A DNA stretch of 64,000 nucleotides from a bacterium (GTDB lineage Bacteria > Patescibacteriota > Minisyncoccia > Phycocordibacterales > UBA5272): assembly GCA_027482685.1 (NCBI GenBank), contig JAIXVU010000001.1, positions 64,910-128,909 on the forward strand, given 5' to 3'. A model generated the notes under the pieces. The model had not been told where the DNA came from and did no database searches. It saw only the letters and a list, made by a program, of their open reading frames with translations. Made by a program: the position numbers and the translations under genes. The number at the start of each line of letters is the position of its first letter. The first letter of the stretch is position 1. Positions 31,117-44,209 of the stretch are shown here, one piece after another.

Positions 31117-31740
31117 TTAACACACGTTAGGGGTGAGGACTTTACCTGCAAGGCTGTATGTTGCTATACACAGGAAGATGAGGCCGATATAGCCTATTTC
31201 TAGCCCTTGGTACGGCAAGACGTTTAACATAGTAGAAAAGCCCAAGAAGCCTAGCATGACACTAAGAAGGGCAGTTCCGCACGCTGCACAGCCTATTCCA
31301 AAGAATGCTGCAACAAGCCCTAGTCCGCTATAGAGACCGCTACGCACGATAACTTCTCCGCGGATCTTTACATACGTATATGCAAGTGAGAGATTAATGC
31401 CACCGATTAGTGAACCAAGGAACGCTAGCAAGAATGCTCCAAGGGTAAATGTATTAGATATATCAAAAAGCGTAGTTATAAAAAGTGATAGCTTCGTATG
31501 AAGAGCGAGTGTGGTAAAACCAAAGACCGCATGTGCATCTTTGCCATTTTGTGTGATAAGAAGCAAGAGGAAAAAGATAACCGTAGAGATAAGAAGTACA
31601 AGAAGGCTATCCTTTCTTTGCAAAACAACCTGAAGGGCATTACTTAATCGCTTCATACTAATAAAGGGTAGTGTAACAGAATGTGTGCAAGTGTGCTCGG
31701 GGAAATCTGTAGTACAGAAAATGACGTCATATGACGTCAT
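31117..31740 (-). CDS. Hypothetical polytopic membrane protein; the annotated start lies inside the palindrome, and the true start is probably the internal MKRLSN...
   Basis: Five hydrophobic helices are present. A membrane-embedded CAAC pair hints at a thiol-disulfide function, but this is weak. Confidence 0.4.
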   Translation of the reverse strand: MTSYDVIFCTTDFPEHTCTHSVTLPFISMKRLSNALQVVLQRKDSLLVLLISTVIFFLLLLITQNGKDAHAVFGFTTLALHTKLSLFITTLFDISNTFTLGAFLLAFLGSLIGGINLSLAYTYVKIRGEVIVRSGLYSGLGLVAAFFGIGCAACGTALLSVMLGFLGFSTMLNVLPYQGLEIGYIGLIFLCIATYSLAGKVLTPNVC

Positions 31741-31762
31741 TTTCTGTACTACAGATTTCCCC
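31699..31762. repeat. 64-bp perfect palindrome (32-bp arms, no spacer) whose centre is two tandem self-complementary ATGACGTCAT units
   Basis: GGGGAAATCTGTAGTACAGAAAATGACGTCAT|ATGACGTCATTTTCTGTACTACAGATTTCCCC was verified base by base. Confidence 0.85.
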
Positions 31763-31764
31763 TC

Positions 31765-32055
31765 TTACCGTATCTCCCCTCCTACACGTTTCTTGGTTAA
31801 GTAGTCTTCTAACTCTATTATTTCATTTTCTACTGCATCCATCCATTCTTTTTCTGTACCATGAGCTGCGTGTAGCTTCGCCTTGAAGTTAATATAGAGA
31901 GGATAGATAAGGCCTGGGTCATCTCGCAGGATTTTATAAAAATCAAACTGTTCCTCTTCTGTAAGCATCATAAGTCCAGTTGTAAAAGCCCTCATTTCTT
32001 CAAATGATAGCTCTGACTCTTCTATAATTGCTTGGAGGTCTTTTCGTAGTGCCAT
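31765..32055 (-). CDS. Hypothetical acidic protein (96 aa)
   Basis: The ORF has good coding appearance, and its stop abuts the palindrome. Confidence 0.45.
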   Translation of the reverse strand: MALRKDLQAIIEESELSFEEMRAFTTGLMMLTEEEQFDFYKILRDDPGLIYPLYINFKAKLHAAHGTEKEWMDAVENEIIELEDYLTKKRVGGEIR

Positions 32056-32165
32056 GTAAAGTTAAGTATACAACCCTGTATAGCCTTTATAATCAAAGGT
32101 TATTCACAGCCTTACTCTCGCATATGTAGAAATGTATGTCAAGGAATAGGAATATCGTGTATTTA

Positions 32166-32453
32166 TTAGTGGATAGTTACTTTTACCTCTGCACGCATTG
32201 CAGCTATATCTAGTAGCCCGCAAGCATCTGCAATATCGTTAGGTAATTTTGCTTCTTCACGTGCTACTACAGCATTTCTTAACCAAGCAACGGAGTGCTC
32301 AGGTAGTTTTGTATTTTCAACATTACTAAGACCTCCTTCTGTATGAATTTCTTTTGGTACAGATATGTTGTGTGGCTGAGATTCCATAGAGATATAATAG
32401 TGATGTTTTAAAACAAAGTGAGTAATGGATACGAGTATACCCCCACAACTCAC
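32166..32453 (-). CDS. Hypothetical protein (start probably the internal MESQPH...)
   Basis: ORF only; the overlapping alternative ORF 32326..32631 was judged less likely. Confidence 0.3.
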   Translation of the reverse strand: MSCGGILVSITHFVLKHHYYISMESQPHNISVPKEIHTEGGLSNVENTKLPEHSVAWLRNAVVAREEAKLPNDIADACGLLDIAAMRAEVKVTIH

Positions 32454-32648
32454 TATCGCGCAAGTAAAATTTTTGTGGTAGAATTGTGGACAAGTTATTA
32501 AGGTAGTTTCTAGTTAAAAGTTTCAAGTTTTTAGTGAAAATACATACGCTATTTAGATAGCTTATAGTATCCACTTCTTTAATTCTTGAAAAGAATTCTC
32601 CGTATTTGTACCAACTAGAAACTAACAACAAATAACTAGCAACTAATT

Positions 32649-32720
32649 TTGGGTATCGTCTAACGGTAGGACATCAGCTAGCGGAGTTTACGGAGCGATA
32701 AAATAATGCGGTCCTGAGTA
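32649..32720 (+). pseudogene. Degenerate tRNA-Gln-like copy: the 5' half (acceptor/D-arm/anticodon-stem) plus a 32-nt insertion at the anticodon loop, with no T-arm or 3' acceptor
   Basis: TTGGGTATCGTCTAACGGTAGGACATCAG matches 27 of 29 positions of the real tRNA-Gln downstream. GGTCCTGAGTA resumes after the insertion. Confidence 0.45.
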
Positions 32721-32820
32721 CGAAGGACAATAAAGATTTGAAACGTACTTGTATGAATTAAAGTATTTTTGTAATTATGTATTTCACTCATAACTAATTA
32801 CTAAAAACTACTAACTATCT

Positions 32821-32862
32821 TTGGGTATCGTCTAATGGTAGGACATCAGCAAAGCGTAACAA
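32821..32862 (+). pseudogene. Second degenerate tRNA-Gln-like 5'-half copy with a 34-nt insertion at the same position
   Basis: TTGGGTATCGTCTAATGGTAGGACATCAG, then an insertion, then GGTACTGAGCAGG. The insertion is related to the one in copy 1 (both end in ..AATAA(T/A)GC). Confidence 0.45.
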
Positions 32863-32937
32863 CGTGAAGCGGTGGAATAAAGCGGTACTGAGCAGGACCA
32901 GAACAAATCTAAACTGCTCACAGAAGTTAAAAAATAT

Positions 32938-33008
32938 TGGGGTATCGTCTAATGGTAGGACATCAGGTTTTGGTCCTGAGTATCGAGGTTCGAGTCCTTG
33001 TACCCCAG
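32938..33008 (+). tRNA. tRNA-Gln (anticodon TTG)
   Basis: A manual cloverleaf gives acceptor TGGGGTA/TACCCCA, D-arm GTCT..GGAC, anticodon stem TCAGG/CCTGA with loop TTTTGGT, T-arm CGAGG-TTCGAGT-CCTTG and discriminator G. CC follows but is not counted. Confidence 0.8.
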
Positions 33009-33029
33009 CCAACTCGTGCGGAGTTCTGA

Positions 33030-33048
33030 CGCTCGGAGAGCGTCGAAA
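33030..33048 (+). repeat. Left copy of the exact 19-bp direct repeat CGCTCGGAGAGCGTCGAAA (contains the hairpin GACGCTC-GGA-GAGCGTC); putative island boundary
   Basis: It is identical to 48283..48301 and lies 22 nt 3' of tRNA-Gln. Confidence 0.6.
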
Positions 33049-33213
33049 CGTATGAGAGCTCTATACAGTTAATGCATAGCTACTGAGTGTAGCCAGCCAA
33101 ATCTAAAAAGTACCCCAAAAGGGTACTTTTTAGATTTTCCCATTATTACACTTCTTGCACTAAACTAATGACATTAGAGTTAAATTCAATGTTAAAACCT
33201 TCTGCGAGTTTGC

Positions 33214-33600
33214 ATGCAAAATTATGATAGAATAAATAATATGTCAGTAAAAAAAATACCTACAAAAAAGAAAAAAGTGGTAAATGTCTTATTTATTGTT
33301 TCAAAAAGTGGAAGTAATCCTCCACGAATAGACTTTTATGATAAAGGTAAATCTGTTCCAAAAGACAAAATTAAAGTAGTATTCAGAAACTCAAATACTG
33401 GACGTTTTGTTACTGAAAAGTATTCTCACACTCCCCCTATAGATAAAGACCACCCGAGAACTCATCATGTAAATAGAGACTCAAGATCTGGTGCGTTTAT
33501 AACAACAAAATCAGAATCAAGACATCCTTCAACCACCATTACTGAACGCATCTCAAAGGACTCTCCTATACATTTTAGAAAAGATAGCTCTAAAAAATAA
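33214..33600 (+). CDS. Hypothetical basic protein (128 aa), translationally coupled to the RusA-like gene
   Basis: The ORF's stop overlaps the ATG of the next gene (TAATGG). Confidence 0.4.
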   Translation: MQNYDRINNMSVKKIPTKKKKVVNVLFIVSKSGSNPPRIDFYDKGKSVPKDKIKVVFRNSNTGRFVTEKYSHTPPIDKDHPRTHHVNRDSRSGAFITTKSESRHPSTTITERISKDSPIHFRKDSSKK

Positions 33601-34088
33601 TGGAAAATTCATATCAATTTATTATTGATGGTATCATTCCTGCTACACAGCAGGCTTTTAAGAAAGTCACTGGGTTTGACCACTATGTTCGCAAGAATGA
33701 ATCAGCAGCAGTGGCTACATTCAAAAGTGTGGTCACTGAGCAAATTACAAGGGAAAGACCTCCTGCGACTTTCCCAACAACTAACTCTGTTTATGTTGCA
33801 ATTATTCAATTTTTTACATCCAACAGAGATAACTATCAAACTCGTGATGTAGACAACATGGCTAAAACCGTTTTAGATGCATTACAACAGAGTAATCTTT
33901 ACACAAACGATAGCCAAGTAAGAACACTTCTTGTAAGTAAGAGAGTGGACCTTGTGAGAGTTCCTCAAGATTTAGGGTACGTATATATAAAAGTATTAGA
34001 AGACGGAGAAGACATTGATGTTATTGATGACGCACTTGAACAAGCTCTTCAACTTTATGACAGTCTTAAGGCTGGAGAGGTAGAATAA
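33600..34088 (+). CDS. RusA-family Holliday-junction resolvase-like endodeoxyribonuclease
   Basis: RDVDNMAKTVLDAL matches the RusA catalytic D-x-D-N-x-x-K-x-x-x-D-A-L signature. The gene sits in a phage-like context. Confidence 0.6.
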   Translation: MENSYQFIIDGIIPATQQAFKKVTGFDHYVRKNESAAVATFKSVVTEQITRERPPATFPTTNSVYVAIIQFFTSNRDNYQTRDVDNMAKTVLDALQQSNLYTNDSQVRTLLVSKRVDLVRVPQDLGYVYIKVLEDGEDIDVIDDALEQALQLYDSLKAGEVE

Positions 34089-34558
34089 AAAATAATCACC
34101 CTCCTTCCTAGGGTGATTATTTTGTTATTGTCTAACGAGTACTAATTACTTAGTGTCGCCGTGACCTGTTTTCGGGATGCGTTCTACCGTAGTTGTATTC
34201 GGTCTTCGCTGTGCTTCTTTAACTGGAATAAAATGTCCAGTCTTAGAATCTCTCCCGAGAGGAAATGTCTTAGCCATATAGGTTATTAACATATTCGGTT
34301 GATAAATGGTCACTTAATATGTTAGGCTGGGATTACAACATCTTAACTTTACATGCTTAAGCACTGTGAATAAACGACCGGATTTCTGGAAGGAATCCTA
34401 ATCACATAACCTAAGGAACATTGTTTTAGAACAAATGTTCCTATATCTCTACCGTATCAAACTATTTTAATATTGTATAGTGTTATTTTAAACAATTAGA
34501 CAACTTTTTTTATAACTGTCTATATTAATCAAATTGTTGTAGTATTAGGTCATTTAAA

Positions 34559-35758
34559 ATGACAGATTTTACAATAAAAATTAAACGAGGTGGCATAAAA
34601 ATCGACAAACGAGTCTTTCTTTCTCTGTTAGACCTTTCCCCTATAAAAGACTACACAGATTATATTAAAGCTGTAGAGTCAAATGAGATTACTGTAAGTG
34701 ATTTAAAAATACTTGCTCAACGAGCAGATGTTCCATACCCATTATTTTTTGCACCAAAAGAAAAAGTTGACGCTCAACTTAAAGATACCCGAAAAAATCT
34801 ATTTGAAAAACTACCAACCAAGTCTGAAATGCAACTTGCTCTTCGCGGAGAAGCTAGTGTCGCTGATATAGAAATAATAGTGAAAGACATAGGAAGAAAA
34901 CAGGAGTTCTTAAAAAGAAGAGTACTCCCAGCAAGTGGTGACAACCCTTATATAGGATCAATTTCTAAGTTAATTAAGAAAGGTTTACCAAAAAAAGAAA
35001 TAGCTGAGCAAGTTAGATCTTATTTTGGAATCAATCTAGTAGAAATGCGGAAATTATCTAAAGATGATGTTCTTAGTTACATATGTAAAAAAGCTGAAGA
35101 AAAAGAAATCTTCATATCCATGAGTTCTTACAACTACATGCCTCAAAATCTGGATTCAAACCTTGGATTAAGTGGATTGTGTGTTAAAGATAAAAAAGTT
35201 CCTTACATTTTTGTAAACACTAGAGATGGCGATGATAAACCAAAGATATTAGAAACTTCAGGTAGACAAATACTTACAGTCATATCCATGCTTGTGTGCA
35301 TAGGAATAAATAAATTTCTATTAAGCACAAAAACAGGTAAATCCTCAAATACTGACTATAAAAGAATATACTCTATTGCTTCAGAAATTCTAATTCCTAC
35401 CAGCGAACTTAATGTAATAAAAATAAATAGTCTTTCTGATCTAACTAGTTGGGCACGTGTACTTAAAGTAACTCCAAGTATGCTTTTAATCTGTCTTGTA
35501 AATGCAGGTAAAATATCGAGAAAATTAGCTAACTCTTATCTTGAAAACCTGAGAGACGCTATAAAAGAAGTCCAACCAAAACGTAGGCAAGCTTTACCAA
35601 TTAATGGGTACAAAAAATACAACGGTGAAAGATTTTCAAAAGAAATAATTAGTGCATATAAAAATAACAAGATAACCGAAGGAGAAACAAAAAATCTATT
35701 ATTTAGAAAAGGAAAAATGGATAATAATTTATTCCAAGAGTATCTCTCAAAATACTAA
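34559..35758 (+). CDS. Hypothetical 399-aa protein, the upstream partner of the PIN gene. It has a possible HTH-like segment (LTSWARVLKVTPSML) and no recognised family
   Basis: The ORF is separated from the PIN gene by only 2 nt. Confidence 0.5.
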   Translation: MTDFTIKIKRGGIKIDKRVFLSLLDLSPIKDYTDYIKAVESNEITVSDLKILAQRADVPYPLFFAPKEKVDAQLKDTRKNLFEKLPTKSEMQLALRGEASVADIEIIVKDIGRKQEFLKRRVLPASGDNPYIGSISKLIKKGLPKKEIAEQVRSYFGINLVEMRKLSKDDVLSYICKKAEEKEIFISMSSYNYMPQNLDSNLGLSGLCVKDKKVPYIFVNTRDGDDKPKILETSGRQILTVISMLVCIGINKFLLSTKTGKSSNTDYKRIYSIASEILIPTSELNVIKINSLSDLTSWARVLKVTPSMLLICLVNAGKISRKLANSYLENLRDAIKEVQPKRRQALPINGYKKYNGERFSKEIISAYKNNKITEGETKNLLFRKGKMDNNLFQEYLSKY

Positions 35759-35760
35759 TT

Positions 35761-36159
35761 ATGAAATACTTATTAGACACAAACTCTCTATCAAAAAATA
35801 TCATTAACAAAGCCTCAAAAAGAAGTGATGTGTTTATCATTCGAGATGTTTTAGATGAGTACGTTTATTCACCAGAAGAAGAAACAAAATTTAAAAGTAC
35901 AGGTATTGATGTGATAGATCTTGAACAAAAACATTTTGAAAAATTAATAGAGGTCATGAAAAAACATGGTGATAATTTTTCTTTAATAAGGCTCTACACA
36001 GGAAAAGGCACAGCTGATGTTTTAATGTTGGCTTATATACTGGCTGAAACTGAAGTACAAGACACTCTTTTCCCTGAAGAATATACAATAGTCACCCAAG
36101 ACGGAGAACTTATCTCTGTATCAAAAGAATACGGAATAAATTGTATAAATCAATTTTAA
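35761..36159 (+). CDS. PIN-domain protein (VapC-like putative ribonuclease)
   Basis: The N-terminus MKYLLDTNSL carries the PIN first acidic residue, further D/E positions (DVLDEY, TQDGE) follow, and the size is 132 aa. Confidence 0.6.
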   Translation: MKYLLDTNSLSKNIINKASKRSDVFIIRDVLDEYVYSPEEETKFKSTGIDVIDLEQKHFEKLIEVMKKHGDNFSLIRLYTGKGTADVLMLAYILAETEVQDTLFPEEYTIVTQDGELISVSKEYGINCINQF

Positions 36160-36170
36160 TAACCTTAATT

Positions 36171-38492
36171 TTATACTTTTGCGTACAGTTTCTCTTGGAA
36201 TTTGAAGAAAATTGAACGAATCAAATCAATATCACCAAGTACATCTTTTGCATCCTCAAGTGACTGATATTTGTTTGTGAGCAATATAGGTAATTTCTCT
36301 TGGTCTAATTCTTCTACACCTGTTTCGATATACTTACTTAATACGAACTCAATAAACTCTTTTTGTTTATCATTAAGAGATTCAAAAATAGTTTCCTGAG
36401 ATGTTTCCACTCTTATATCTCTTGGTATTGGTTTAATATCACTATTAAATACATATTCCAACACATCAAAAAGATCACTATTCTCAGCATCAATCAATTT
36501 CTGTAATGTAGTTAATTCGTCTTTTCCATATCCTGCTTCGTCTAGTTTTTCTAGTAAACTTTTTCTAGTTATTGGATTACTCCAAATTTCTCGTAATTCT
36601 TCTTCACTTGTAAAGAATTTAGGTAATGTCCCAAACAAGTTTTGTAAAAACTCTTCCACAGAAATAGGTTTACCGTCTGCACCCCAAAATGAAGTTGCAA
36701 TCATGTGCTGTATTTCACGCTCTTTCCCATCTCGTAACTTAATCTTAAGTTTCTTATTCGGTTCAGTTGGTGGTTCTGGTGGAAAAGGTGGTTCACCCTC
36801 TACTCCTTTTGGTGGTTTAGGTTCCGTAGGTTCGTCATCTACTGGACTGATTGGTTCACCATCCCACTCAGGATCTGCAAAATGATGATAGGCATCTACA
36901 AAGTCATAAATAGTGAAGAACTCCTTACCGTCAAATAAACGTGTACCACGCCCCACAATTTGCTTAAACTCAATCATAGAGTTCACTGGTCGCATTAGAA
37001 CAATATTACGAATATTTCTAGCATCTACTCCAGTTGAAAGTTTCTGTGAAGTGGTGAGTATGGTCGGTATAGTTTTTTCGTTATCTTGGAACTCTCTCAA
37101 GAACTGTTCTCCTATTTCTCCGTCGTTAGCAGTAACACGCACACAATAATTTGGATCAGTGCTTTTCTTGTACTGATTAATCAAATCTCGAACAGCAGCC
37201 GCATGATCTTGAGTAGCACAGAAAACAATAGCTTTTTCATTTTGATCAGCTTCATCCATAAATACTTTCACACGCTTTTCCTCTCTCGCTTTAATTTCGA
37301 TTATCTTATTAAAATCAGGTTCGGTATAAAGTTTTCCTTCCTCGATTTCCCCTTCGATGATTTGGTCATCACTTGTATAAATATAATCGTCTAATGTTGT
37401 CTTAATACGCTTAACCTTAAAAGGAGTAAGGAAACCATCATTTATGCCTTCTTTTAGAGAATAAATATATACTGGCTCACCAAAGTATTTATACGTATCT
37501 ACATTGTCCTTACGTTTTGGTGTGGCTGTTAAACCTAATTGCACAGCAGGAGAAAAATATTCCAAGATTCCTCTCCAGTTTCCTTCGTCGTTTGCACCAC
37601 CACGATGACATTCGTCTATAATAATAAAATCAAAGTAATCAGGTGAGTATTCTCCGAAGTATGGGGCAGGATTACCATCTACATCTTTACCACTCATAAA
37701 GGTTTGAAAGATAGTAAAGAATATAGAGCCATTAGTAGGTACACTTCCTTTTTTACTTATCTCTTTTGGATTGATACGTACAAGAGAGTCTTCTGGAAAT
37801 GAAGAGAATGAGTTATATGCTTGGTCAGCTAGTATGTTTCTATCTGCTAAAAATAGAATACGAGGACGACGAGAACCATCACGCTTTAAGTTCCATCTTG
37901 TCTGAAAAAGTTTCCATGCAATCTGAAAAGCAATAGCTGTTTTACCTGTACCAGTGGCTAATGTTAGTAAGATACGATCCTTATTATTTGCAACAGATTC
38001 AAGAACATTTTTTACTGCTATTTCTTGATAGTAACGTAATTGCCAAGATCCACTCTTATCTTCAAATGGAACAGAACTAAACTTTTCCCTCCATTCATTT
38101 TGAACTGCAAAAGTTTTATTCCAAAGTTCGTCAGGAGAAAGATACTCAGAAACTAAACCCTCAATACCTGTTTTCATACAGATACTGTATATTTCTTTTC
38201 CATTTGTGGAATAGGTTGTTTCTATGTTTAATTTCTCTGCGTACTGCTTGGCTTGTGCAACACCTTCACCAACCCCTATGTTTGCACTCTTTGCCTCAAC
38301 CACAGCCAATTTTATGCCTTTGTAGACCAATACATAATCAGCAGTAAGTAACTTTCCTCTTATACCTCCAGTTTGAATTTTACCAGCAGTAATATTGTAT
38401 TCACGGAGTATTTTAGATCCTTCAATAACACCCCAACCACAATCTTTTAGCTTTGGATCAATTAGCTCTGCCCTTGTTTCAGATTCGTTCAT
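36171..38492 (-). CDS. hsdR: Type I restriction enzyme R subunit (HsdR), compact form
   Basis: The N-terminal HsdR nuclease domain (AVVEAKS), the SF2 motifs LATGTGKT and IIIDECHRG, and a position at the end of the hsdM-hsdS operon all fit HsdR. Confidence 0.8.
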   Translation of the reverse strand: MNESETRAELIDPKLKDCGWGVIEGSKILREYNITAGKIQTGGIRGKLLTADYVLVYKGIKLAVVEAKSANIGVGEGVAQAKQYAEKLNIETTYSTNGKEIYSICMKTGIEGLVSEYLSPDELWNKTFAVQNEWREKFSSVPFEDKSGSWQLRYYQEIAVKNVLESVANNKDRILLTLATGTGKTAIAFQIAWKLFQTRWNLKRDGSRRPRILFLADRNILADQAYNSFSSFPEDSLVRINPKEISKKGSVPTNGSIFFTIFQTFMSGKDVDGNPAPYFGEYSPDYFDFIIIDECHRGGANDEGNWRGILEYFSPAVQLGLTATPKRKDNVDTYKYFGEPVYIYSLKEGINDGFLTPFKVKRIKTTLDDYIYTSDDQIIEGEIEEGKLYTEPDFNKIIEIKAREEKRVKVFMDEADQNEKAIVFCATQDHAAAVRDLINQYKKSTDPNYCVRVTANDGEIGEQFLREFQDNEKTIPTILTTSQKLSTGVDARNIRNIVLMRPVNSMIEFKQIVGRGTRLFDGKEFFTIYDFVDAYHHFADPEWDGEPISPVDDEPTEPKPPKGVEGEPPFPPEPPTEPNKKLKIKLRDGKEREIQHMIATSFWGADGKPISVEEFLQNLFGTLPKFFTSEEELREIWSNPITRKSLLEKLDEAGYGKDELTTLQKLIDAENSDLFDVLEYVFNSDIKPIPRDIRVETSQETIFESLNDKQKEFIEFVLSKYIETGVEELDQEKLPILLTNKYQSLEDAKDVLGDIDLIRSIFFKFQEKLYAKV

Positions 38493-38513
38493 AATCTTGA
38501 CATTATAGCACTT

Positions 38514-39680
38514 TTATAGTTCGCCGTTAAATGCTTTTTGAAGAATACTTTTCTTAAGCTCTTCTAAGTCATTTAATTTTTGTTCGTAGATTGATTCAAG
38601 TCTTTTTGTTTCATTTGAAAGTGATTCGAGTTTTTTAACAATAAGTTCTTGCTCCTTTATTGATTTTGGAAAGCTTATTCTAATAAGTTTTAAATTTTTA
38701 AGAATAATTCTTCTTATTGCAACTCCTGTTTTCATCCCCACGGCCTCTTGTAAAAATTCAGGATTTTTCAAAACATATTTCAAAAAAGACGAATCAATGA
38801 TTTTTCTTTTAGGTCTTATGATTGCCAACGAAGACAACACTACAAAATCTTTTTCAAAATCAACAAGGGACACTTTTCCCACAGTCCCATCTTTTGAAAA
38901 AAGAAGATCCCCTTGATTTGGTTTACATCCATTTTTAAGTAAGGATTCATAATCTTTTTTATTTATAAACTTACACCTTTCAAAATTAATTATATCGTTA
39001 TCAATATCTCTTACTGTTATATACGGATATTCATCTTCATTAGATGAATCTGGGGAAAAATGACTTCCGTCCGTAATTTGTTCACAAACATCCATAAGCT
39101 CAACATTTTCCCAATCGCCTCCTTTATTTGTAAACACACTCTGTAAATAACTCTCAAAAAGCTCCTTAGCATTTTTTAGATTTTGTTCAGCATTATCTTT
39201 TACTTTAGATATGTTAGTAAAAGATTCCTCTAAAATAGATACAATGCGTTGTTGTTCTTTAAGTGGAGGAAGTACGATTGGATATTCTTTAATCATCGGC
39301 ACAGTTAATTGTGGTATTGATGACCCACTATGGGTAAAATCAATACCACTAATTACAAACTTAAGAAAAGTTAAACTAACAACATCTGTTTTAGGTATTA
39401 TAACTATGAGTCGCACCACTGGATAAAAAGGTTCCTGTCTTATTTCAGAGTAACCAATTGTACCTCTTGCTGAAATAGTTATGCTTGGTTTTGTTACTCT
39501 TGCGACATTTGTGTAACCATATAATCCCTTATTTTTCTCACCATTTGAAAAGATGGGGATATTATAAAAATCTGTTTTAACTTTAAATGTGTTATTTTTG
39601 TCTACATCACCACCAGCAAAAAGCTCTTCACAAACATCTCCTAACTTTTTTATTTCCCAGTTAGTTTTCATAATCGCCAT
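38514..39680 (-). CDS. hsdS: Type I restriction-modification specificity subunit (HsdS)
   Basis: Two target-recognition-domain halves are separated by the conserved coiled-coil repeats (LKEQQRIVSILE...; KEQELIVKKLESL). Confidence 0.75.
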   Translation of the reverse strand: MAIMKTNWEIKKLGDVCEELFAGGDVDKNNTFKVKTDFYNIPIFSNGEKNKGLYGYTNVARVTKPSITISARGTIGYSEIRQEPFYPVVRLIVIIPKTDVVSLTFLKFVISGIDFTHSGSSIPQLTVPMIKEYPIVLPPLKEQQRIVSILEESFTNISKVKDNAEQNLKNAKELFESYLQSVFTNKGGDWENVELMDVCEQITDGSHFSPDSSNEDEYPYITVRDIDNDIINFERCKFINKKDYESLLKNGCKPNQGDLLFSKDGTVGKVSLVDFEKDFVVLSSLAIIRPKRKIIDSSFLKYVLKNPEFLQEAVGMKTGVAIRRIILKNLKLIRISFPKSIKEQELIVKKLESLSNETKRLESIYEQKLNDLEELKKSILQKAFNGEL

Positions 39681-41106
39681 AGTTACTCTTTATATACTTT
39701 CTCTGCTTCACATATTCAATTAAAAGATTGTAAAACATCTCCTCTTCCTTGTCCTCAGCAACTTTAATAGAGTCACGACCGCTCTCGTCTTTAGTAATTA
39801 AGTACTTCCCCCAGTAAACATTAGAAGTTGTATTATCTGGTACCTTAATACCAAAAGACTTCAGCATGGTTACTGAGTATCTCCCGTAGGGCATTCTTTG
39901 GTCCATTTTTATAGTAGCGTTTTTTATAATTTCTAGCTTCCTTAAGAAAACATCAGTATTTGAAAAACTGTGTATAGTAACCTTTACCGCTATATCGAAT
40001 ATCTTTTGAAAACTATCCGCAAAATGGTCTTCATGATAACTACCTTTTTTTAACTCAAGTAGCTGAAATCTCGTTGCTTTTAGTAATGACCTCAAATTCA
40101 TAATTTCACTATTTATTGCTCTTGAAAAGATATGCCAGAGAAAAAGCTTAATGTACCCACTATTCCCAATAGAAGAACTTAAATTTGGTTCTTCATTCTT
40201 AATACTCATAGCAATTTGCTCAACTGTAGCGAGAATTGCTTTTTTATTATCAAAATAAAATGGACTAACAGTAAAAAACTTGTCCATGTACCCAGAGAAA
40301 TCTGTCTCTGCTCCATACTTATGGTGAAAAAAGTTTTTTAGGTTTGTGTAATCTGCAACAATAACTATTAAATCAAAACCAAATTTATTTTCATGCTCCT
40401 TTTCAAAGTAGGCGGATAATATATTTAATATCCTAAATACGTGCTCAGGGTCTATTCTGTCTAAGTCATCTAAAACAAGAATACTTTTTTTGGTATCTTT
40501 TTGAAGAGTGATTTTTTCTTTCAAGAGATGACTTAGAAAATCTGTTTCAGAAATGTTTTTTGCTTTAATCTGCTCAACATATTTTTCTACTAATGCTTTT
40601 TCTCCGCCTTTATATTCATGCTTAAATTCTTGAAATTCTTTATCTAATTCGAGTAAGTCCTTTAGTGGTCTACCGAGTTTAGTAAGAGAGGATGAAATTG
40701 GGTCTGGAATTGCATCTCCATAGTTTTCTGCAATAGAAAGAGTTGACTGTAAGACAGAATTTACAGTAAATCTATTTCTTGCCCAAGAATAAAAAAGAAG
40801 TGCTGATTCTTTTATTCCATCAACTTTATTACCTTGTAAAATATCCTTATTCTTTTTTAGTAACTCCACAAGAATGTCATATTTTATAAGCTCTAAAATA
40901 TCCTCATTACTGTTAATCTGATAGTTAATAGGATATAAATGAAACACATCATACTTATCTTTTCTGGATTCAAAGAATTCATTTAAGAAAAAAGTCTTTC
41001 CAATGCCGAAAGGTCCAGAGAAAAAAACTCTTGAATTATTTTCCATAACTAAAAAATCTTCAAAAACTTTTTCTACTGTATCAATTGGTATTTTAATATC
41101 TGCCAT
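39661..41106 (-). CDS. KAP-family P-loop NTPase embedded in the Type I R-M operon
   Basis: Walker A is SGPFGIGKT. The KAP-type Walker B is ILVLDDLDRIDPEHVF. The gene overlaps hsdS by 20 nt and starts 6 nt after hsdM. Confidence 0.65.
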   Translation of the reverse strand: MADIKIPIDTVEKVFEDFLVMENNSRVFFSGPFGIGKTFFLNEFFESRKDKYDVFHLYPINYQINSNEDILELIKYDILVELLKKNKDILQGNKVDGIKESALLFYSWARNRFTVNSVLQSTLSIAENYGDAIPDPISSSLTKLGRPLKDLLELDKEFQEFKHEYKGGEKALVEKYVEQIKAKNISETDFLSHLLKEKITLQKDTKKSILVLDDLDRIDPEHVFRILNILSAYFEKEHENKFGFDLIVIVADYTNLKNFFHHKYGAETDFSGYMDKFFTVSPFYFDNKKAILATVEQIAMSIKNEEPNLSSSIGNSGYIKLFLWHIFSRAINSEIMNLRSLLKATRFQLLELKKGSYHEDHFADSFQKIFDIAVKVTIHSFSNTDVFLRKLEIIKNATIKMDQRMPYGRYSVTMLKSFGIKVPDNTTSNVYWGKYLITKDESGRDSIKVAEDKEEEMFYNLLIEYVKQRKYIKSNYGDYEN

Positions 41107-41111
41107 AGAAA

Positions 41112-42578
41112 CTAAATAATCTTTTTAATTAAATTAAGGATATCTTCACTCTCTTTATCTAAAGCTTTCATTTCTTTCAAAATATCTTCAGGTGTTCGTA
41201 GTACTGTTTCCTCTTTTTTATTTGGGTTCTTAGCACTCAAATCAAAAGTTTTTTGGTCTATATCTTTCACGTTTACACTCCATGAGTTTTCACTCTCAGC
41301 TTTTGTTTTTTGAAGCTTAATAAAATCTTCTAAATCTTTTTCACTAAGTGAGTTTGTTTTACCTAAATTTCTATCTAAGTTAAGGTGGTAGAACCAAACC
41401 TTCTTTGTGGATGATCCTTTTTCAAAAAATAACACAACTGTTTTTACTCCTGCTCCAGTAAAAGTTCCAGCAGGTAAATCAAGTACAGTATGCAGGTTGC
41501 AATTTTCTAACAATAACTTTCTTAAGCTAACAGTTGCATTATCTGTATTACTTAGGAATGTATTTTTAATAACGACGCCACCTTTACCTCCAGCTTTTAA
41601 TATCTTGATAAAATGCTGTAAGAAAAGAGATGCTGTTTCTCCTGTTTTAATTGGAAAATTTTGTTGTACTTCTGCTCGTTCTTTTCCGCCAAATGGAGGG
41701 TTTGCTAATACGATATTATAACGGTCTTTCTCTTGTATGTCTGCAAGATTTTCAGCAAGGGTATTGGTATGGATAATATTCGGAGCTTCTATACCATGTA
41801 AAATCATATTCATCGTACCGATGATATAAGCAAGAGATTTCTTTTCCTTTCCATAGAAAGTTTTCTTTTGTAAAATTTCTACATCTTTTGTTGTGAGGTT
41901 TTTACTCTTCTTTAAATAATCAAAAGCTTCACATAAAAACCCAGCACTACCTACTGCACCATCATAAATAGTGTCACCAATTTTTGGAGCAACTACTTTA
42001 ACAATAGTAGTAATGAGTGGTCGTGGAGTATAGTACTCACCACCATTACGCCCAGCGTTCCCCATGTTCTGTATTTTAGATTCATACAAATGACTCATCT
42101 CATGCTTTTCAGCGTGGGTACGGAAACGAAGTTCGTCTATACGATTAATAACTTCACGTAAGTTGTAACCACTATGAATTCTATTTTTTAATTCAGAAAA
42201 AATCTCACCAATCTTATATTCAATAGTATCTGGACTTTCAGCACTTGTTTTAAATTTCTTAAGATAAGGGAAGAGCTTATGATCAACAAAATCTTTCAGA
42301 TCATCTCCTGTTAATTCTTTATGATGATCAAGTTTCCCTGTCTTATCCTTTGGGGTAGCCCACGTAGTCCAACTATATTCAGGAGATATAATATTAGTAT
42401 ATTTTTTTCCTGCAAGTTCAGCCGCTGTTTTCTTGTCTTTCTCTAAATCGTCTAGATACTTCAAAAACAAGACCCATGAGGTTTGTTCAACATAATCAAG
42501 CTCACTTCCGCATCCTGCATCTTTGTGTAAGATGTCGTCTATATTCTTAAAAGTTTGTTCAAACATAAATTTACTCAT
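41112..42578 (-). CDS. hsdM: Type I restriction-modification N6-adenine methyltransferase subunit (HsdM)
   Basis: The HsdM N-terminal domain, AdoMet motif I (DGAVGSAGFL) and the catalytic VLANPPFGG are present. Confidence 0.85.
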   Translation of the reverse strand: MSKFMFEQTFKNIDDILHKDAGCGSELDYVEQTSWVLFLKYLDDLEKDKKTAAELAGKKYTNIISPEYSWTTWATPKDKTGKLDHHKELTGDDLKDFVDHKLFPYLKKFKTSAESPDTIEYKIGEIFSELKNRIHSGYNLREVINRIDELRFRTHAEKHEMSHLYESKIQNMGNAGRNGGEYYTPRPLITTIVKVVAPKIGDTIYDGAVGSAGFLCEAFDYLKKSKNLTTKDVEILQKKTFYGKEKKSLAYIIGTMNMILHGIEAPNIIHTNTLAENLADIQEKDRYNIVLANPPFGGKERAEVQQNFPIKTGETASLFLQHFIKILKAGGKGGVVIKNTFLSNTDNATVSLRKLLLENCNLHTVLDLPAGTFTGAGVKTVVLFFEKGSSTKKVWFYHLNLDRNLGKTNSLSEKDLEDFIKLQKTKAESENSWSVNVKDIDQKTFDLSAKNPNKKEETVLRTPEDILKEMKALDKESEDILNLIKKII

Positions 42579-42591
42579 AATTATATCACTT

Positions 42592-44004
42592 TTAACTAGC
42601 TCGGACTAACTCAATTTCGCTTATATAAATCTTTTTATCTGATAGCAAAATTTTGCTTTTCAAACACCCTAACAACTCTCGTTTCTCTATATCCTTTCCA
42701 TCTCTCAAAATATACTTCGCATAATTTCGTATATCTACATCACCTACACTAGTACTATCCTTAACCCCTAAAACACCTATCTGAAAGCGTTTGAATCTAT
42801 TAACCTCATCTTTTATCTTCTCTTTCATTCCTATCTCGTCTAGGTCAATTTTATCGAACACCTCTTCTAACTGTTTAATAAGATCATCTTCATTAAGGTA
42901 TCCACTTTTACAATGTCTATCCCTCACCTTATTACACCCATAATAGACATATCTATGAATATTCCCATTCTTCTGTTTCTTTAACTTTTCATCGGCACAT
43001 ACTCCTGAACCACATAAACCACAGGTCATAAGTTTAGTGAAAGCAAATTCTTTACTTCCGAATTCTGTTTTTGTAATCTGTCGTGTTATCTGTACTTGGA
43101 CAAGATCAAAGAGTTCTTTTGTGATTAATGGCTCATGTGATCCTTTATACCAGTTACCACTCTTTTTAGGATATTCAAATTCTCCGTAATAGAAAGTATT
43201 TCTTAAGAGGATATGTATCGTACTTAACGTAAGCCCTTTATTACTACTTACCGATCTAAAATTAAGATCAAACTTTAACCAATGATACACTTTTCTACCA
43301 CTCCATTTTTCGTAAGCAACTTTCTCAAACATTTGTTTCATTATATGACCTCTCTCTGGATCAATATATGTCTGACATTTTCTATCTATTCTTTTTTCTT
43401 TAAGATAACCAGTAGGAGCAGGTGCTGGCCATAAACCCATTTCTACTCTTGTCTTTAAACCTCTCTTAACATTAATACTTTTATTATCATTTTCTAACTT
43501 CGCTTGAGAACAAAGAATCATTAATAAAAACTTTTCATTTGGGGAATTAGAAAATGTTTGTCCATAAGTTCTAATTTGAAGAAGTAACTTTTGATCCATT
43601 AAATCAACAAGCGACCCTAGGTCGCCTGCATTTCTACTTAATCTATCTGGTGCCCATGTCAGCACTCCGTTATATCTACCAATTCGTATATCTTCTAAAA
43701 TTTCTTTAAACACTGGTCGCTGTCCTGATTCTTTCGCTGAATGAGATTCTCGTCTAATATCAATAATTTCTAAACCTTCTCTTTCTGCTAACGAAAGCAT
43801 TTCTTTAATTTGTGAATCAATAGAAAGAATTTGTCTTTCTTCTGATTCAGTACTTTTTCTACTATATAAAACATATTTGATTTTTGTTGTTGGAATAACA
43901 GCCATATTACCTATTAGTCCAAATGGTGCTTGTTGTTGCATATATATATTAATGACAGAACCATAATCCCTGCATAGTCTATGCAGAACTAAAAAAGGCG
44001 ACAT
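42592..44004 (-). CDS. Large serine recombinase (resolvase/invertase catalytic domain + recombinase domain + zinc ribbon); the likely start is the internal MAVIPTT...
   Basis: The catalytic Ser context is YVLYSRKSTESEE. The Cys-rich ribbon CGLCGSG...C is present. The size is about 440-470 aa. Confidence 0.8.
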   Translation of the reverse strand: MSPFLVLHRLCRDYGSVINIYMQQQAPFGLIGNMAVIPTTKIKYVLYSRKSTESEERQILSIDSQIKEMLSLAEREGLEIIDIRRESHSAKESGQRPVFKEILEDIRIGRYNGVLTWAPDRLSRNAGDLGSLVDLMDQKLLLQIRTYGQTFSNSPNEKFLLMILCSQAKLENDNKSINVKRGLKTRVEMGLWPAPAPTGYLKEKRIDRKCQTYIDPERGHIMKQMFEKVAYEKWSGRKVYHWLKFDLNFRSVSSNKGLTLSTIHILLRNTFYYGEFEYPKKSGNWYKGSHEPLITKELFDLVQVQITRQITKTEFGSKEFAFTKLMTCGLCGSGVCADEKLKKQKNGNIHRYVYYGCNKVRDRHCKSGYLNEDDLIKQLEEVFDKIDLDEIGMKEKIKDEVNRFKRFQIGVLGVKDSTSVGDVDIRNYAKYILRDGKDIEKRELLGCLKSKILLSDKKIYISEIELVRAS

Positions 44005-44209
44005 TGTGAGAGATTTATTTGTCTACAAAAATGCCTTAGCAAAAGACCTTTTATGCGATATAATCAATAGATTAATACAAGAGTATTAAGAGAAAAAATT
44101 TGCAGTAGCCTAACCCTTTAAGTAATTAAAGGTATGGTGAAAAAGTCCTATCAGATCAAAAACCCCATCATGTGGGCTTTGCTCTGATAGGCCATATCTG
44201 GAAACGGAT

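Follow-up and report, generated by a model that had tools for sequence, protein, structure and literature searches.

The stretch of DNA analysed here (the window: 64,000 nucleotides, positions 64,910 to 128,909 of contig JAIXVU010000001.1, assembly GCA_027482685.1) resembles a bacterial chromosome, at about 38% G+C, and contains a tRNA-Gln(UUG) gene that is preceded by two partial copies of its own 5' half. These copies, termed W1 and W2, belong to an undescribed conserved family of units that is specific to one tRNA-Gln of Saccharibacteria-like bacteria of the candidate phyla radiation (CPR); a search of the literature for such units found no description. The units are conserved, modular and tRNA-Gln-specific and lie in the sense-strand position, and are therefore read here as leader RNA modules. 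Between one and at least four of them stand between a promoter and the tRNA-Gln on the same strand, and they would thus be transcribed as its 5' leader. The reading favoured, at a probability of roughly 45%, is that W1 and W2 are members of a conserved family of tRNA-Gln-derived leader RNA modules that would switch between structures and so gate or sense tRNA-Gln. An earlier note, made from the sequence of the window alone, had offered decayed tandem duplications, footprints of repeated integration and tRNA-derived regulatory RNAs as explanations of the two copies, and it is the last of these that fits best. Every rival explanation conflicts with part of the evidence.

The two partial copies and their relatives

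ARAGORN called two tRNAs in the window, one of which is the tRNA-Gln(UUG) on the + strand, and the Rfam tRNA model scored this gene at 59.9 bits, in agreement with its earlier description as a bona fide tRNA-Gln(TTG) (coordinates are given in Table 1). A 27-nt core, GGGTATCGTCTAAYGGTAGGACATCAG, is present in three places and no more (32651, 32823 and 32940), always on the + strand, against an expectation of 0.00 in shuffled sequences. From position 1 of the tRNA, W1 matches at 27 of 29 nucleotides and W2 at 28 of 29, and both lie upstream of the gene on its own strand. Directly after ...ATCAG each has a C in place of G, followed by a foreign block of 31 nt in W1 and 33 nt in W2. The tRNA sequence then resumes with a segment corresponding to standard positions 36-44 and is lost before the T-arm: both copies lack the T-arm and the 3' acceptor strand, and inspection of the window found neither TACCCAA nor a T-loop 3' of either. 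The degenerate 5'-half copies, the insertions at the anticodon loop and the brief resumption of tRNA sequence had all been correctly seen in the earlier note.

Neither copy is a complete functional tRNA, both being uncalled by ARAGORN and the Rfam tRNA model remaining silent on them even at E<=10. A canonical tRNA gene was rejected for W1 and W2 on the grounds of an incomplete cloverleaf that tRNA finders do not detect. An intron-containing tRNA was likewise rejected: the part beyond position 44 is absent, the Rfam scans gave no intron family, and the site of the insert is wrong, positions 31-35 being replaced and not 37/38. Small open reading frames (ORFs) over the units (32815-33012 on the - strand and 32864-33055 on the + strand) were rejected as coding on account of their overlap with the tRNA and of the 1-nt indels that distinguish homologous units. 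A match to the acceptor/D pattern at window 34121 was a chance hit.

Several features of the copies had escaped the first reading. The repeat unit extends about 30 nt into the upstream leader (32620-32678 against 32792-32850, 85% identical), and both copies have a hairpin just 3' of the resumed segment, formed by GAGTACG...CGTACTT in W1 and by TGAGCAG...CTGCTCA in W2. The loop of the W2 hairpin starts with CAGGACCAGAAC (32893-32904), the 12-nt reverse complement of the tRNA anticodon arm at 32967-32978. An origin of the units in tandem duplications of the 5' part of the tRNA together with its leader, with an inverted copy of the anticodon arm, is supported by comparison of these sequences.

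Relatives were sought in a one-genome-per-species scan with the pattern GGTAGGACATCAGC-N(20-50)-GGTNCTGAG. This gave five true hits (L001, L002, L004, L006 and L007), in metagenome-assembled genomes labelled Candidatus Saccharibacteria, Nomurabacteria and Paceibacterota, and two others that are chance matches in coding DNA. A metagenome scan with TCGTCTRAYGGTAGGACATCAGH was too permissive, 119 of its 120 loci being ordinary tRNA-Gln genes with other anticodon stems that serve as negative controls, and contributed a single new unit-bearing locus, L090. The upstream gene cluster of the window is syntenic in L001, L002, L004, L007 and L090 at 25-63% protein identity; it includes proteins of 96, 179-207 and 230-290 aa as well as an SNase-domain protein, and identity rises to 82% among further homologues. 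Because of this synteny, homologues of the 96-aa protein were used to fetch further loci. The synteny is not universal, since in L131-137, L142-144 and L154 the 96-aa gene has no tRNA-Gln within 2.5-3 kb. The comparison of related genomes that the earlier note had proposed thus finds the unit architecture in 15 distinct CPR/Saccharibacteria-like loci (the window, L001, L002, L004, L006, L007, L090, L128-130, L138-L140, L146, L149, L150 and L155), in each case before the same tRNA-Gln and on the same strand, with flanking proteins that are 25-82% identical.

Two units are present in each of the window, L002, L128-130 and L149, and one in each of L006, L007, L090, L140, L146, L150 and L155; L001 has at least two and L004 at least three, these being lower bounds because the contigs end within the array. 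A single diverged unit is found in L139 and only a remnant in L138. Positions 1-73 of the tRNA-Gln itself are identical in L006, L007, L090, L128, L138-140, L146, L149 and L155, whereas the 3' CCA is encoded in some copies only and L002 and L150 have a compensatory T-stem variant (GTGG/CCAT in L150 against GAGG/CCTT in L149).

When the non-tRNA part of the unit was made into an nhmmer profile, the profile hit nothing but units in 0.95 Mb of collected DNA that included about 110 other CPR tRNA-Gln loci. No family in Rfam 15 matches the units, the only hits being to the tRNA itself and to spurious hairpins. Scans of IMG/VR returned no true unit, nor this tRNA, the three hits being chance matches in coding DNA, and a phage collection gave matches to the tRNA only, at 77-88% identity. 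A phage-borne tRNA cassette was rejected since no occurrence on a viral contig emerged from the IMG/VR scans.

All units can be aligned and share one order: acceptor 5' strand, D-arm, ACAUCAGC, insert, GGUCCU(GAG) and a 3' module. ACAUCAGC is invariant except in L139 and L155 (AUAUCAGC). GUUUU (positions 31-35) is replaced by C and a 26-33-nt block rich in GCGG and A, after which the tRNA sequence resumes in the modules as GGUCCUGAG. Inserts fall into types A, B and C/D, which have in common AGYG, a small variable hairpin, (A)GCGGUAAAAUA and GC, each insert having three AGYG(G) motifs spaced 12-15 nt apart. Three kinds of 3' module were distinguished: X, with the stem GAGUACG/CGUACUU and a loop of AAGGACAAUAAAGAU and 6-7 variable nucleotides; Y, with the stem UGAGCAG/CUGCUCA and a loop that starts with GACCARAA and ends with AUCUAAA; and Z, a near-palindrome GGUCCU-N-AGGRYC followed by AAAAC. 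The combinations seen are A+X, A+Y, A+Z, B+Y, C+X, C+Y and D+X; judged by alignment, the units are mosaics in which insert types A-D and modules X, Y and Z have been shuffled. They stand in tandem 112-251 nt apart with no element between them. Neither inspection by eye nor Rfam revealed box C/D, hammerhead or T-box-like motifs, and a likeness of CAGC...GCGGUAA(AA)UAC to the 530-loop of 16S rRNA is presumably due to chance and carries no weight here.

The outer parts of the units are less regular. The acceptor 5' strand is degenerate in several, mostly promoter-distal, units (W1, W2, L128a, L146 and L150), and L004a, L140 and L149a have extra structured insertions of 46-63 nt in the D-arm. Hairpin-rich D-arm insertions of 17-63 nt as a whole occur in the first units of L004 and L149 and in L140, L139 and L138; those of L140 and L149a share an insertion point, after GGTAGG, while their 46-47-nt sequences are unrelated, and L138 and L140 have in common a TCGAG(A/G)GGC...GCC(C/T)CGAAGA hairpin with a compensatory change. 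The L001 leader contains five tandem GGTATTA repeats, and the leaders of L146 and L138 carry GGAACCAAAA(A)TAC, an anti-anticodon-like motif outside any unit.

Selection and strand

Seven X modules were compared; the syntenic 96-aa proteins of their genomes share about 54-82% identity with that of the window. The 28-nt X block GGUCCUGAGUACGAAGGACAAUAAAGAU has a mean pairwise identity of 0.97, as have its 19 non-tRNA nucleotides alone, and the 3' stem one of 0.88, with C-to-U changes that keep G.U pairs; the next 6-7 nt of the loop fall to 0.30 and the spacer after the module to 0.43. Type A inserts (W1, L002b, L007, L128a, L128b, L140 and L146) reach 0.85. There is usually a single X module per genome and therefore no donor for gene conversion, and the occurrence of conserved non-tRNA blocks beside variable patches where a conversion donor is lacking therefore argues for purifying selection.

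This bears directly on the explanation that the earlier note had preferred, decayed tandem duplications of the tRNA. Duplication of the 5' part of the tRNA with its leader stands, and the homology of 27/29 and 28/29 is what a decaying pseudogene would display. Decay does not stand, as the architecture persists in 15 loci and the non-tRNA segments outconserve the adjacent loop and spacer, which is not the pattern of neutral evolution. A more elaborate version would hold that the units are non-functional pseudogene fragments whose likeness is maintained by gene conversion from the live tRNA, the cassette having been spread by recombination or horizontal transfer along with the island hotspot described below. 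The greater conservation of the tRNA-homologous parts is as such a model predicts, and so are the degenerate acceptor strands of distal units, the large insertions in some units and the remnant in L138. L149 and L150 also fit it, since they share a flanking protein and upstream DNA while their cassettes clearly differ. Yet conversion from the tRNA does not account for donor-less non-tRNA blocks that are 0.85-0.97 identical beside patches at 0.30-0.43, for the recurrence of the same insert and 3'-module types across genomes with syntenic proteins only about 50-65% identical, or for stem changes that keep pairing, and this version is considered rather improbable. As regards the pair itself, L149 and L150 have an identical 97-aa neighbour and near-identical upstream DNA, and their cassettes differ in unit number and by many substitutions; the two diverge abruptly from the leader onwards, suggesting that recombination replaced the cassette as a whole.

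The strand on which the units are read can be approached through substitutions in predicted stems. Of seven single transitions, six produce a G.U pair in a sense RNA where an antisense RNA would have A x C; these are in the X 3' stem (L146 and L149a), the Y stem (L002a), the Z hairpin (L140 and L007) and the D-stem of L155, where C25 to U turns G10-C25 into G.U. The lone A x C change is in L002a. Marginal though the count is, these substitutions point to an RNA read from the tRNA strand, and not to an antisense RNA or a DNA palindrome.

An antisense function would nevertheless have some attraction, in that GGTCC...GGACC followed by a T-rich tract could form intrinsic terminators on the opposite strand and shield the divergent host genes from transcription out of the island. 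Terminator-like sites were called inside units, one in the window (32728-32711; 0.5 expected), three in L149 (0.2) and one in L150 (0.1), and the serine-recombinase ORF of L149 and of L150 extends into the tRNA in antisense orientation. The W1 local hairpin, read on the - strand (32728-32711) and followed by CGCATTATTT, has a terminator-like score. However, the stems are short (5-7 bp), the T tracts are impure and W2 was uncalled, while both substitutions in the hairpin (L140 and L007) are G.U in the sense orientation and A x C in the antisense. Strong bidirectional terminators already lie 3' of the tRNA (33099-33137, and in L140), and conservation of the D-arm, of ACATCAGC and of the X-loop would be left unexplained. 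Shielding of this kind is thus given only a slim chance.

The units could also be sites that act at the level of DNA, such as recombinase remnants or landing pads (near-palindromes GGTCCTGA-N-TCAGGACC and AGCGG repeats) or operator arrays. In keeping with this, near-perfect palindromes of 17 bp occur in L149b and L007 and one of 15 bp in L155 (GGTCCTG-T-CAGGACC), the AGYG(G) motifs of the inserts recur at their regular spacing, the locus is a hotspot for islands with a large serine recombinase, and inverted fragments of the tRNA 3' end are found downstream in L130 and L140. The geometry is unfavourable, however, as islands join at the 3' end of the tRNA (the sequences of the window and L130 part immediately after CCCCAGC), an insertion downstream cannot leave 5' halves upstream, and there are no mobile genes between the units and the conserved upstream cluster. 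Moreover the substitutions break the symmetry of the DNA and keep the pairing of the RNA, and a DNA-level role appears very unlikely. The footprints of repeated integration suggested in the earlier note fail on the same geometry, the units being upstream 5' halves beside conserved genes, and an integrase attachment-site (att) remnant was rejected in view of tandem 5' halves that enclose no element. The 3' end of the tRNA-Gln occurs only once in the window.

Predicted pairing with the tRNA anticodon arm

The Y and Z modules contain (U)CAGGACCAAAAC, which can pair with tRNA positions 31-43 (GUUUUGGUCCUGA) at 11-13 of 13 positions, whereas the best window in X modules is at the background of 9-10 of 13. 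W2 pairs at 12 of 13 with one G.U, at U34, in a duplex of -21.1 kcal/mol, and in L004 the reverse complement of the anticodon arm reaches CTGAT. The GGACC part has a second possible partner in cis, the GGUCCU of its own unit. The only complement of the AAAAC part is the tRNA loop; its target, GUUUU, is the exact stretch deleted from the unit, and all variants of AAAAC (AGAAC, AGAGU and AAAAU) are transitions that retain pairing with U or G. The predicted duplex with an opened anticodon arm is worth -19 to -26 kcal/mol, compared with -9 to -14 for the module's own fold, -4.2 for the tRNA anticodon hairpin and about -8 for a 7-bp contact with the loop alone. In minimum-energy folds of a unit and the tRNA precursor, pairing of the leader with the anticodon arm beats the cloverleaf by 2-12 kcal/mol, values that are predictions from which co-transcriptional folding may differ, and in several such folds the acceptor strand of the unit also pairs with the 3' acceptor strand of the tRNA.

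The units can be drawn with overlapping helices: a tRNA-like UCAG/CUGA stem, the local GGUCCU/AGGACC hairpin and the outer X or Y stem. The UCAG/CUGA stem is retained in 16 of the 18 units scored and is broken in L002b and L140, both of which keep the local hairpin, and for this reason the two helices are treated as alternatives; in W2 it is the local hairpin that is weakened while the other two helices are kept. Insert types A-D each permit a small hairpin of 3-4 bp at the same place; a longer imperfect hairpin is possible in type A, and pairing with the D-loop region in types C/D, and neither holds for all types. Modelled in this way, the anatomy of the units suggests a multi-state RNA.

In the mechanism proposed, GGUCCU would in a first state pair with the downstream AGGACC in the local hairpin. 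In a second, (U)CAGGACCAAAAC of a Y or Z module would be freed to pair with G31-A43 of the tRNA-Gln in the same precursor or, alternatively, to contact free tRNA by 7-bp loop-loop pairing with UUUUGGU. Such pairing could gate the folding or processing of the precursor, or report the abundance or modification state of tRNA-Gln; the X modules, which lack complementarity to the tRNA and are equally conserved, probably bind another partner. The specific form of this model, in which a tRNA gene carries its own riboregulator and the modules capture the nascent anticodon arm or kiss the loop of mature, possibly hypomodified, tRNA-Gln, is regarded as doubtful, with the odds running well against it.

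Several points weigh against a leader RNA that switches to gate or sense tRNA-Gln. The tRNA anticodon arm is invariant and offers no covariation with the anti-anticodon, and the complementarity could be a relic of the inverted duplication. The arm is not universal, since cassettes with X modules only (L006 and L150, and L146 apart from the ACCAAAA motif of its leader) lack it. No consensus secondary structure emerged for the insert, RNAalifold keeping only the invariant AGGAC/GUCCU helix. The 6:1 ratio of G.U to A x C changes is marginal only (one-sided p of about 0.06), and the 100% identity of the tRNA-like parts may be owing in part to gene conversion. Finally, some units are eroding, as seen in the degenerate acceptor strands, in the D-arm insertions of L004a, L140 and L149a and in the L138 remnant, and the modules are therefore dispensable or fast-evolving.

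A different partner would be expected if the units were protein decoys. Glutamyl-tRNA synthetase (GluRS) reads the augmented D-helix of tRNA, and CsrA binds GGA loops. A mimic of tRNA-Gln (D-arm, top of the anticodon stem and G36G37) might titrate an enzyme that binds tRNA-Gln, for example a non-discriminating GluRS or TrmD, or, by its AAGGA/CAGGA loops, a CsrA-type regulator. The D-arm and ACAUCAGC are indeed the most conserved parts, the G10-C25 to G.U change in L155 keeps the D-stem, the units are tandemly repeated, and the X modules are highly conserved without complementarity to the tRNA. AAGGA or CAGGA, through which a CsrB-type sponge would act, is placed in the predicted hairpin loop of almost every unit, the GGA being derived from the complement of the anticodon arm. 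L140, on the other hand, has CAGGG and not CAGGA, the D-arm is interrupted in several units, no partner protein was found and no neighbouring gene co-varies with the presence of the cassette. A decoy thus has a small share of the probability, and a leader RNA acting on tRNA-Gln remains the reading preferred here.

Among known systems, tRNA genes split into separate 5' halves exist in Nanoarchaeum and Caldivirga, and the units resemble them in that a tRNA 5' half ends at the anticodon loop and runs into non-tRNA sequence. They differ in having neither a matching 3'-half gene nor a bulge-helix-bulge junction, and a complete tRNA-Gln follows them, so that joining the halves would only remake the same tRNA. 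Like tRNA pseudogenes and partial duplications at integration sites, the units derive from the adjacent tRNA, lack the T-arm and 3' acceptor strand and occur at a hotspot. Att-type remnants, however, are 3' fragments that flank an element, whereas the units are tandem upstream 5' halves with conserved non-tRNA modules common to diverged genomes. Classic att-type loci were met in the metagenomes (L014, L023/L089 and L074), where a CPR tRNA-Gln is followed by direct partial copies of its own 3' half.

The closest functional resemblance, drawn by analogy, is to T-box specifier-anticodon pairing and to the guide in the archaeal pre-tRNA-Trp intron, although the defining features of neither are present. 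As in T-box Stem I, a leader RNA is complementary to the anticodon of one tRNA and can form alternative helices, and the units contain the Gln codons CAA/CAG within ACCAAAA/ACCAGAA in the manner of a T-box specifier. Unlike a T-box, they have no T-box sequence, Stem I platform or terminator/antiterminator, their complementarity extends over 12-13 nt and not 3-4 nt, and they are tRNA-derived and stand upstream of the tRNA gene itself, where T-boxes precede aminoacyl-tRNA synthetase or amino-acid genes. The Rfam T-box model (RF00230) gave no hit at E<=10 in 31500-34000, nor at E<=1 in six other cassettes. The archaeal pre-tRNA-Trp intron contains a box C/D guide whose complement is the anticodon arm of the same tRNA. 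In both cases extra RNA in the same precursor is antisense to the anticodon arm, the guide acting in cis before maturation; the units differ in being a 5' leader and not an intron and in lacking conserved box C/D motifs. Fibrillarin-type ribonucleoproteins are not known from bacteria.

RNAs located in tRNA spacers or leaders, or built on a tRNA-like fold, provide a further comparison. The 3'ETS-leuZ sponge, a regulatory RNA cut from a tRNA precursor, binds small RNAs and not its own tRNA. The units are like this sponge, YrlA/Y RNA (PMC4201824) and mascRNA in location or fold, but show no sequence relation to any of them and no Rfam relation in the Rfam scans. YrlA mimics the acceptor/T/D elbow, whereas the units have no T-arm or acceptor stem.

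Leaders of bacterial tRNAs are usually seen as short disposable sequence, and partial copies of tRNAs are taken for junk or for scars of integration. Here a tRNA-derived element is retained ahead of a tRNA-Gln that probably serves as the housekeeping one throughout a lineage of ultra-small, host-dependent bacteria. Were the riboregulator model correct, it would gate RNase P processing or feed back on the supply of tRNA-Gln, and would represent a class of cis-acting regulator that targets a tRNA and not an mRNA. If the units regulate or proof-read the maturation of tRNA-Gln, they would constitute a new form of tRNA control and open a way into the control of translation in CPR bacteria, a group that is difficult to approach by experiment. 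Whatever their function, they form an uncatalogued structured RNA family that annotation pipelines miss or mislabel.

Layout of the locus and the adjoining island

The features of the window locus are collected in Table 1. The promoter block is likely, from its sequence, to be the start of a transcript comprising leader, units and tRNA. In most loci an extended -10 of the form TGNTAG(T/A)AT lies upstream of the cassette (L001, L002, L007, L140, L146 and L155), and in L002, L007, L140, L146, L149 and L150 a leader of the AACTAAC type stands before the first unit or directly before the tRNA. A terminator scan of the window found none on the sense strand between the units and the tRNA-Gln; the terminator beyond the tRNA is a perfect 17-bp inverted repeat with a fold z-score of -6.4.

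Table 1. Features of the tRNA-Gln locus, in window coordinates.
Feature	Position	Strand	Remarks
Putative promoter block, extended -10 TGGTAGAAT at 32476-32484	32433..32497	+	Block shared with L138 and L139; activity predicted
G-poor leader with (A)ACTA(A) repeats, directly before W1	32613..32648	+	Similar leaders in other loci
W1 tRNA 5'-half copy: acceptor 5' strand, D-arm, anticodon-stem 5' strand	32649..32678	+	C replaces G31
W1 insert, type A, TAGCGGAGTTTACGGAGCGATAAAATAATGC, in place of tRNA positions 32-35	32679..32709	+	Type A alignment
W1 resumed GGTCCTGAG (32710-32718), then X module	32710..32750	+	X block conserved in 7 loci
W1 X hairpin, invariant loop AAGGACAATAAAGAT	32716-32750	+	Part of W1
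W1 alternative local hairpin GTCCT/AGGAC	32711-32728	+	Part of W1
Second AACTA leader copy, duplicated along with the unit	32792..32820	+	Within the repeat of the leader and unit
W2 tRNA-Gln 5'-half copy	32821..32850	+	
W2 insert, type B, AAAGCGTAACAACGTGAAGCGGTGGAATAAAGC	32851..32883	+	Near-identical to L004 insert; related to L002a
W2 resumed GGTACTGAG (32884-32892), then Y module	32884..32920	+	Pairs with tRNA 31-43
W2 Y hairpin	32889-32920	+	Loop starts with an inverted repeat of the tRNA anticodon arm (32893-32904)
tRNA-Gln(UUG), encoded CCA	32938..33011	+	ARAGORN and Rfam; functional gene, parent of the units
Trailer of about 90 nt of the downstream island, then strong bidirectional terminator hairpin 33099-33137	33012..33137	+	Predicted end of transcription unit

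Upstream of the locus and divergently transcribed are genes for two hypothetical proteins of 96 and 207 aa, for an SNase-domain protein and for RmuC. At window 31699-31762, between two genes on the same strand, there is a perfect 64-nt palindrome, GGGGAAATCTGTAGTACAGAAAATGACGTCATATGACGTCATTTTCTGTACTACAGATTTCCCC, which attracts spurious Rfam miRNA hits.

A defence/mobile island adjoins the 3' end of the tRNA-Gln (window 33012-44200) and is separate from the units. Its genes encode RusA, a type I restriction-modification system (HsdR 36171-38492, HsdS 38514-39680 and HsdM 41112-42578), a large serine recombinase (42592-44004) and a KAP NTPase; at 38-44 kb the G+C content is low and the skew strong. 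The window and L130, the island-free conspecific of L128, diverge directly after CCCCAGC. In other loci this place is taken by a reverse transcriptase in L138, a Cap4 nuclease in L140, a helicase in L139 and a serine recombinase in L149 and L150. The trailer at 33012-33098 (90 nt) is shared with L128 and absent from its conspecific L130; it includes a GACGCTC-GGA-GAGCGTC hairpin and ends in GTAGCCAGCCA, which resembles the tRNA 3' end, and may on this evidence be an arm of the island attachment site. In L149 (1-1285) and L150 (1-1483) the serine-recombinase ORF, on the + strand, runs antisense through about 60 nt of the tRNA-Gln (- strand) and stops at the TAG within the complement of the D-loop, which suggests that the attachment site and the end of the recombinase gene overlap. 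In L140 and L130, part of the tRNA-Gln 3' end recurs in inverted orientation, as GGGGTACAAGGACTCGAA, 35-55 nt downstream of the tRNA; in L140 it makes up the arms (about 45 nt each) of a large palindrome within which the terminator lies.

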